A DNA stretch of 64,000 nt from Escherichia coli (GTDB lineage: Bacteria; Pseudomonadota; Gammaproteobacteria; Enterobacterales; Enterobacteriaceae), in assembly GCF_003334765.1 (NCBI RefSeq), contig NZ_QOWT01000002.1. One strand, given 5' to 3'. The position numbers were made by a program, and so were the translations under genes. How positions within the stretch are numbered: the stretch's first letter is position 1; each line of letters opens with the position of its first letter. Below are positions 56,242 to 56,487 of this stretch, piece after piece. Below the pieces are notes generated by a model. That model was given only the letters and a program-made list of their open reading frames with translations, was not told the DNA's origin and did not search any database.

Positions 56242-56329
56242 GCTGAAAAACATAACCCATAAAATGCTAGCTGTACCAGGAACCACCTCCTTAGCCTGTG
56301 TAATCTCCCTTACACGGGCTTATTTTTTT
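56242..56329 (+). ncRNA. cyaR: CRP-activated small RNA CyaR (RyeE)
   Basis: Sequence GCTGAAAAACATAACCCATAAAATGCTAGCTGTACCAGGAACCACCTCCTTAGCCTGTGTAATCTCCCTTACACGGGCTTATTTTTTT matches CyaR as I remember it; terminal hairpin plus T-run; upstream TCACA half-site (56203-56207) at about -42 is consistent with a class II CRP site. Confidence 0.85.
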
Positions 56330-56487
56330 ATGCATAAGCCCTATCTCTGGTAACCGTCTTCCATTGACCACATCGATAGAATCCTCCTTCATAGCACGAT
56401 GCCTTTCACTTATCGGCATCGTGCTCCCACAGGTTCCGGCTACGCACAGCCAGAACGCGCATATTTGACGCTTACCAAAAAATATTC

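Follow-up and report, generated by a model that had tools for sequence, protein, structure and literature searches.

The vacant attachment site of phage P2 in the cyaR terminator of an Escherichia coli genome and possible traces of an older P2-like prophage beside it

Introduction

The 27-bp segment at positions 56302-56328 of a 64-kb stretch of Escherichia coli DNA, here called the window, is almost certainly the primary bacterial attachment site of phage P2 (attB locI), judging from its sequence and that of its relatives, and no prophage is integrated here. The site is unoccupied by any recent phage but probably not pristine. In our reading, which we hold to be rather likely, the "empty" site is the scar of an older P2-like prophage, the 800-bp island directly downstream of it (56329-57128) would be the fossil of that prophage, and yegR would be its only surviving gene. 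Attachment of P2 at the 3′ end of cyaR, the site locI and the prophage remnant in K-12 are already known and were published in 1992, according to the part of the later literature that quotes this work (PMC3931495). What is new is modest, namely evidence for reading the canonical empty site, together with yegR, as the fossil that an earlier P2-like prophage left behind.

The 3′ end of cyaR contains the core of P2 locI

The gene order in the window is baeR-yegP-yegQ-cyaR-yegR-yegS-gatR. The small RNA gene cyaR (ryeE; 56240-56325, plus strand) is matched by Rfam family RF00112 with 100.7 bits (gathering score 47, E 1.3e-19) over model positions 1-85 of 85, and a terminator scan locates its intrinsic terminator in a stem-loop at 56293-56320 that is followed by a T run. 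Upstream of cyaR lies yegQ (trhP; 54796-56157, plus strand), assigned from the list of open reading frames and the RefSeq annotation of identical or near-identical genomes, and this adjacency is kept across the Enterobacterales in nearly all of at least 120 species loci searched by tblastn. On the other side, yegR (56488-56805, minus strand; open reading frame and RefSeq annotation) encodes a 105-aa lipoprotein that carries a lipoprotein signal sequence and whose homologues match Pfam PF27694. Next to it is the lipid kinase gene yegS (57210-58109, plus strand), assigned by RefSeq annotation and by tblastn in outgroup loci, which is the ancestral downstream neighbour of cyaR. An earlier note, made from the letters of this DNA alone, had estimated about 160 bp of non-coding sequence between cyaR and yegR; the gap between the end of cyaR and the stop codon of yegR measures 162 bp (56326-56487) and contains no credible gene. 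The note had also dismissed a minus-strand open reading frame at 56291-56500 as spurious. This frame of 69 aa overlaps the terminator of cyaR as well as the stop codon of yegR, has no match in PHROG or NCBIfam, is unannotated in every RefSeq genome inspected and has no counterpart in CFT073, a strain that is 97% identical in the region. It is indeed spurious.

The attB core AATCTCCCTTACACGGGCTTATTTTTT (56302-56328, plus strand) coincides with a part of the cyaR terminator, taking in its loop, the 3′ half of its stem and the T run. When the segment 56240-56500 was compared by blastn with 50,697 phage records, the matches were phage P2 and several Peduovirus genomes, each of them exact over the 27 bases at the core. 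In the P2 record AF063097 the corresponding segment, 24356-24382, is identical at 27/27 positions and is annotated as attP / Int core site; it is flanked by the P′ arm and int on one side and by the IHF site, the P arm, the ogr terminator and ogr on the other. The window contains a single copy of the 27-bp core, and the chance expectation is zero even if three mismatches are allowed. The genomes in which the locus is interrupted mark the same point, as the breakpoint of their split matches falls on query base 403, which is window position 56302. The earlier proposal that the 3′ end of cyaR serves as attachment site is therefore borne out by the 27/27 identity with the P2 attP core and by prophages that are flanked by two exact cores.

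These observations connect the window directly to the published site. The locI core string as quoted in PMC3931495 equals window 56302-56328. According to that paper, which cites Barreiro & Haggard-Ljungquist 1992, P2 prefers locI in E. coli C, and in K-12 this site is "occupied by a remnant of a P2 prophage". The genome paper of E. coli W names "cyaR RNA" among the prophage insertion sites, where W has a P2-type prophage, K-12 has ogr-D′ and strain Crooks is empty, and gives both rybB and cyaR as P2-type sites (PMC3032704). It also assigns E. coli B a P2-type element at this gene, and the BL21(DE3) record that we checked (L005, NZ_CP053602.1 2047320-2087520) has the uninterrupted junction; this mismatch may come from a different B lineage or from a different reading of the table in PMC3032704.

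Occupied and empty forms of the site in E. coli

A K-12 derivative carries 629 extra bp between cyaR and yegR, including ogrK and a truncated gene D (yegZ), and genome comparison shows that this segment is missing from the window. Followed base by base, the K-12 sequence runs from cyaR through the exact core, a P2-type P arm with the ogr terminator, ogrK and a D fragment that is C-terminal, to 19 nt of a second core, after which it becomes identical to the window. The statement in the earlier note that ogrK and yegZ lie right after cyaR in K-12 was accurate, both being inserted exactly at the core. The K-12 arrangement would have arisen by integration and a subsequent internal deletion that left core-P arm-ogrK-D′ and the 19 nt of the second core.

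Intact elements were found at the same position. In strain E275a the space from yegQ to yegR holds a complete P2-like prophage with two exact cores 32.8 kb apart, int lying on the yegR side and ogr on the cyaR side. In O157:H7 F8797 the int gene of a P2-like prophage adjoins yegR, in a stretch that, as retrieved, did not reach the cyaR end. The order int-core-yegR is also seen in the GenBank "phage" record ON470606.1 (L004 2938-5842), which consists of a prophage plus host yegR, yegS and gatR beyond attL. A P2 lysogen has the order cyaR-core-P arm-ogr-D...C-int-P′ arm-core-yegR. The recombinase responsible, P2 Int, is a tyrosine recombinase that works with host IHF and binds the arm sites and core of attP as well as the core of attB; strands are exchanged inside the core, and excision requires Cox. 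Since the phage core is identical to the 3′ end of cyaR, integration should rebuild the small RNA together with its terminator and leave cyaR undamaged. The F8797 prophage (L144 7632-11321) has in addition an "ABC-three component system" and an AAA ATPase between its replication and portal genes, a cargo that is of defence type and located in a known P2 variable region.

The frequency of the different forms was estimated from 5424 complete E. coli genomes matching the region. An uninterrupted cyaR-core-yegR-side junction, as in the window, is present in 4218 of the 5424 (78%), so that the empty state proposed in the earlier note is also the usual one. The junction cyaR-core-P2 P arm occurs in 1273 genomes and the K-12-specific deletion junction in 356 (~6.5%), while the locus is split by more than about 1 kb in about 860; a larger P2-like element is found at cyaR in ~15-17% of the sample. 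All these percentages are approximate, as the empty and the cyaR-core-P arm counts together exceed the genome total by 67, an overlap that is probably made up of EC2257-like variants matching both queries. The earlier note had suggested two checks, an alignment with the K-12 junction and P2 attP and a survey of genomes, and both turned out in its favour: K-12 does not share the arrangement of the window, and prophage junctions at cyaR are found. NCTC122 has the arrangement of the window and contains the whole query (100%) in one piece with 99.5% identity; we take this strain to be E. coli C, in which locI was defined. The core of locI in E. coli C is identical (AAAAAATAAGCCCGTGTAAGGGAGATT on the opposite strand) and lies at the same locus as the K-12 remnant, and the site itself shows no difference from the window. 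None of the results speaks against the identification of the window segment as locI.

An 800-bp island lies between cyaR and yegS

Comparison with outgroups reveals that the region downstream of the core is an insertion. The alignment with E. whittamii, a close relative of E. coli (YegQ 99% over the 122 aa compared, YegS 96%), delimits an AT-rich island of 800 bp (56329-57128) between the cyaR terminator and the ancestral upstream region of yegS: homology ends at 56329 and restarts at 57129, and the island begins exactly where the core ends. Its GC content is 29-40% across 56500-57100, compared to 50-58% in yegQ and yegS. The outgroup scan for cyaR used one genome per species and gave at least 120 loci, listed without E. 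fergusonii, E. marmotae, E. ruysiae, the cryptic clades II-V and Shigella. In about two thirds of these listed loci yegS starts 95-450 nt past the cyaR loop, and this short spacing is found at every listed locus with an informative downstream flank, a few genera excepted, spanning Yersinia, Serratia and Proteus to Enterobacter, Kosakonia and E. whittamii. By tblastn, none of the at least 120 other-species loci listed has YegR next to cyaR. Conversely, a direct cyaR-yegS junction occurs in 0 of the 5424 E. coli genomes.

The only gene in the island is yegR. The earlier note had seen no phage open reading frames between cyaR and yegR, and this holds for the whole of 56329-57128: tblastn with P2 Int, Ogr and D gave no similarity and hence no coding relics of int, ogr or D, and tblastx and blastn-short searches of the island against a full prophage returned the P-arm match only. 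We also considered yegR as a phage cargo gene and rejected this idea. A tblastn search of 50,697 phage records retrieved only two records, both with host flank, and YegR homologues elsewhere (46-82% identity) are located in unrelated chromosomal contexts, one of them beside IS elements and none in a prophage. PHROG 21109 matches YegR at full length; this family was probably built from mis-delimited prophages carrying host flank.

The region 3′ of yegR folds unusually well. The minus-strand fold of 56375-56490 has -44.7 kcal/mol (z = -5.0 against shuffles) and includes two predicted stem-loops, at 56433-56456 and 56393-56425 on the minus strand. A U tract is missing from both, and they could act as a processing or stability element or as a weak terminator.

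Probable relics of P2-type attachment arms at both ends of the island

Directly after the core, the segment 56329-56376 (plus strand) aligns locally to the P2 P arm with a score of 38, compared to 14.7 ± 2.3 for shuffled sequences, 0 of 3000 of which reach 38. This 48-bp relic retains the second Int arm repeat, TTGACCACATCGA, within an exact 15-mer, while the first Int arm repeat is decayed and the IHF-site segment is deleted. No likeness to the P2 P′ arm is detectable in the DNA left of the core. The relic is preserved to different degrees: a multiple alignment shows that the variant E. coli EC2257 has kept part of the IHF-site segment, and in the lineage represented by locus L074 this segment is almost whole. 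The P-arm relic segment is absent in the outgroup E. whittamii.

The same arm architecture is seen in P2-like prophages or remnants directly after cyaR in Citrobacter, Enterobacter, Buttiauxella and E. albertii, and the P arm shared by the Citrobacter, Enterobacter and Buttiauxella prophages at these cyaR sites comprises the IHF segment and two arm repeats. Occurrence of the same arm at cyaR in other genera indicates that the arm is a phage module and that the transfer went from phage to chromosome. Individual examples of a P2-type P arm after cyaR are L030, L035 and L072 (Citrobacter), L017 and L092 (Enterobacter), L112 and L118 (Buttiauxella) and L117 and L021 (E. albertii); in the loci of the other genera the P arm is often followed by ogr and D, and the core has the local terminator variant ACGCAGGC. 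Such P arms after cyaR argue that cyaR is an attachment site of the P2 family well beyond E. coli. In Salmonella enterica subsp. diarizonae (L066) the gap between cyaR and yegS measures about 2.9 kb, and the arm-like motif ATTGACCACAT is located ~55 nt past the core; this gap may be another relic-bearing insertion at cyaR.

The P2 core has the terminator variant ACACGGGC, which is specific to E. coli, most relatives having ACGCAGGC at this place. A cyaR terminator donated by the phage was considered as the origin of ACACGGGC, and this assumption is unnecessary: the L074 lineage has a single-step intermediate, ACACAGGC, with a perfect stem, so that point mutation suffices to generate the variant.

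At the far end of the island, 57047-57123 (plus strand) resembles a decayed attL. In the alignment to the left half of P2 attP plus core, it consists of a P′-proximal segment and a core-like 27-mer. An ungapped scan gives 17/27 matches for the core-like site at 57097-57123, in the orientation of the true core, and sites of the 17/27 level number three in 128 kb, this one among them. The segment 57047-57122 is colinear with the P2 P′-proximal segment plus core and scores 125 under a scoring suited to ~60% identity. Shuffled sequences score 54 ± 10 with 0 of 5000 reaching 125, and among the 1996 tiles of the window this value is otherwise reached only by the true core. Strict scoring (+2/-3) yields 22 against 16 ± 2.3, a value that about 2% of the shuffles and several other tiles reach. 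The putative right relic is thus marginal on the strict score alone and becomes convincing only if the ~60%-identity scoring is taken together with its exact position. It stops four bases short of the resumed ancestral sequence upstream of yegS, and E. albertii has a well-preserved P2-type P′-core junction (attL) at the same position relative to yegS. The statement of the earlier note that no P2-type remnant lies next to cyaR is therefore correct for genes but not for DNA, given the P-arm relic and the decayed attL-like far end.

Whether 57097-57123 serves as a secondary attachment site was considered as well. This idea was rejected, as 5381 of 5422 genomes are uninterrupted at this place and the one broken example inspected turned out to be an IS1 insertion; no use of this decayed core was seen.

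Discussion

The cyaR site resembles the attachment sites within tRNA, tmRNA and small RNA genes. As in these, the phage carries the 3′ end of the gene and integration rebuilds the RNA gene; in the case described here the core overlaps the terminator. Known examples are phage 186, which integrates in a tRNA-Ile gene, and the P2-like prophages at rybB. Compared to tRNA sites, the target at cyaR is a Crp-dependent, Hfq-binding small RNA, and the segment of identity is short (27 bp).

The island downstream of the core may be explained by the following course of events. An older P2-like element would have integrated into the ancestral cyaR-yegS site and would then have been lost almost entirely, what remains being the P-arm relic, yegR together with the AT-rich region of its promoter, and a junction of P′ and core in the course of decay. 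The core on the cyaR side doubles as the CyaR terminator, which would explain why it has stayed intact and still serves modern P2-like phages as their target, while its counterpart on the yegS side would have decayed to 17/27. The K-12 remnant could then represent the first step of the same erosion. In line with what one expects of a fossil prophage, the segment is absent in close relatives, is inserted exactly at the att core and has an atypical base composition. A core repeat at both ends with arm-type inner sides is recovered statistically and not by identity, given the advanced decay of the right repeat. Several observations speak against the fossil reading: no phage gene or pseudogene can be recognised inside 56329-57128, yegR is absent from the phage records searched except those that include host flank, YegR homologues in other enterics have ordinary chromosomal surroundings, the right-end relic is marginal by the strict score, and the decayed core was not seen in use. 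It is likely that fixation of the putative fossil in E. coli followed the separation from lineages like that of E. whittamii, and that the 3′ end of cyaR docks the P2 family in several genera, with relics accumulating downstream.

The reverse direction of transfer has to be considered. Spacer and yegR could be ancient E. coli DNA, from which an ancestor of P2 copied its attP, for instance by imprecise excision, and the site would then be pristine. Phages integrating in tRNA or small RNA genes do generally carry a host-derived copy of the gene 3′ end, the P2 core has the E. coli-specific ACACGGGC instead of the ACGCAGGC of most relatives, and an island without phage genes would be readily understood. 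However, the presence of the same P arm in the Citrobacter, Enterobacter and Buttiauxella prophages at cyaR identifies it as a conserved functional phage module, and the whole 800 bp are absent from the outgroups, the very close E. whittamii included. The AT-rich composition of the island also speaks against it, and capture by a phage leaves the second attP-like segment at the far boundary unexplained. We therefore regard a pristine site as distinctly unlikely. That the window derives from a recently cured lysogen, in which precise excision by Int and Cox restored attB, is very unlikely in our view. Precise excision would give exactly the observed sequence, and the ~15-17% of E. coli with a P2-like element at this site imply frequent gain and loss. 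Nevertheless, positive evidence for curing is nil. The uninterrupted junction is the majority form (78%) and is shared by many unrelated strains; a cured site has moreover the same sequence as one that was never occupied, and the identity of the site is unaffected.

A third possibility is that a different integrative element or several unrelated insertions made the island, and that its P2-like ends are due to chance or to later, separate visits of P2. The window, EC2257 and L074 retain different pieces of the P arm, which could reflect independent cycles of integration and deletion, and yegR homologues shift between chromosomal contexts, sometimes beside IS elements. Chance is difficult to reconcile with a left relic far above the random expectation and a right relic whose score is equalled only by the true core in 64 kb. 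Both relics are, furthermore, ordered and oriented as a single attR...attL pair that bounds, within a few bases, the segment missing from the outgroups. An origin from a different element or from several events is for these reasons unlikely, and we favour descent of the island from one older P2-like prophage.

Two known remnants help to place the proposed fossil. The K-12 ogrK/yegZ (ogr-D′) remnant shares locus and core with it and is a P2-like prophage cut by internal deletion to a junction fragment. It keeps recognisable genes, whereas all that the proposed yegR fossil has kept is non-coding relics of the junctions and one gene that is not phage-like. The other is E. albertii L021, where a P2-like element at cyaR shows a P-arm relic after cyaR and a P′-core junction against the upstream sequence of yegS, and which serves as template for reading the right-end relic of E. 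coli. In contrast to the E. coli island, the L021 remnant measures 3.4 kb, lacks yegR, contains IS-like sequence and has a much better preserved attL; it probably goes back to a separate, more recent event. In the accessible literature, by a search not reaching key older papers, no description of relics flanking yegR was found.

Current understanding of P2 integration is not overturned by these results. A textbook recombination target, represented by P2 locI and the K-12 ogr-D′ remnant, was recovered from sequence alone, and the cyaR-yegR junction provides a clean marker for typing the occupancy by P2-like prophages. It also calls for some care. Prophage-calling pipelines tend to overrun the cyaR-yegR boundary and to tag yegR, yegS and gatR as phage genes; ON470606 and probably PHROG 21109 illustrate such an overrun, which makes the cyaR locus a trap for database contamination. 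If the fossil reading is true, it gives an origin to the uncharacterised yegR and shows how one att site, lying inside a functional RNA terminator, remains usable as the other one decays. The locus would then also be a small case of repeated integration shaping an intergenic region.

Strain variation around the locus

The surroundings of the site vary further between strains. Many genomes, among them CFT073, Nissle 1917 and ST131-type genomes in which the query matches in two pieces, have a 170-bp indel directly past the yegR stop codon (L002 1583-1752 in CFT073), which is absent from the window and whose insertion point corresponds to window position ~56483; it contains a minus-strand open reading frame of 51 aa that is annotated as a hypothetical protein in ON470606. 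Some strains carry a ParD/ParE toxin-antitoxin pair between yegP and yegQ, for example L139 (1869-2464; O55:H7 USDA5905) and L140, and the window is without it. The DeoR-family repressor gene gatR, beside yegS, is intact in the window (58191-58970, minus strand, 259 aa), while an IS element interrupts it in BL21(DE3) and the K-12 annotation gives it as partial.
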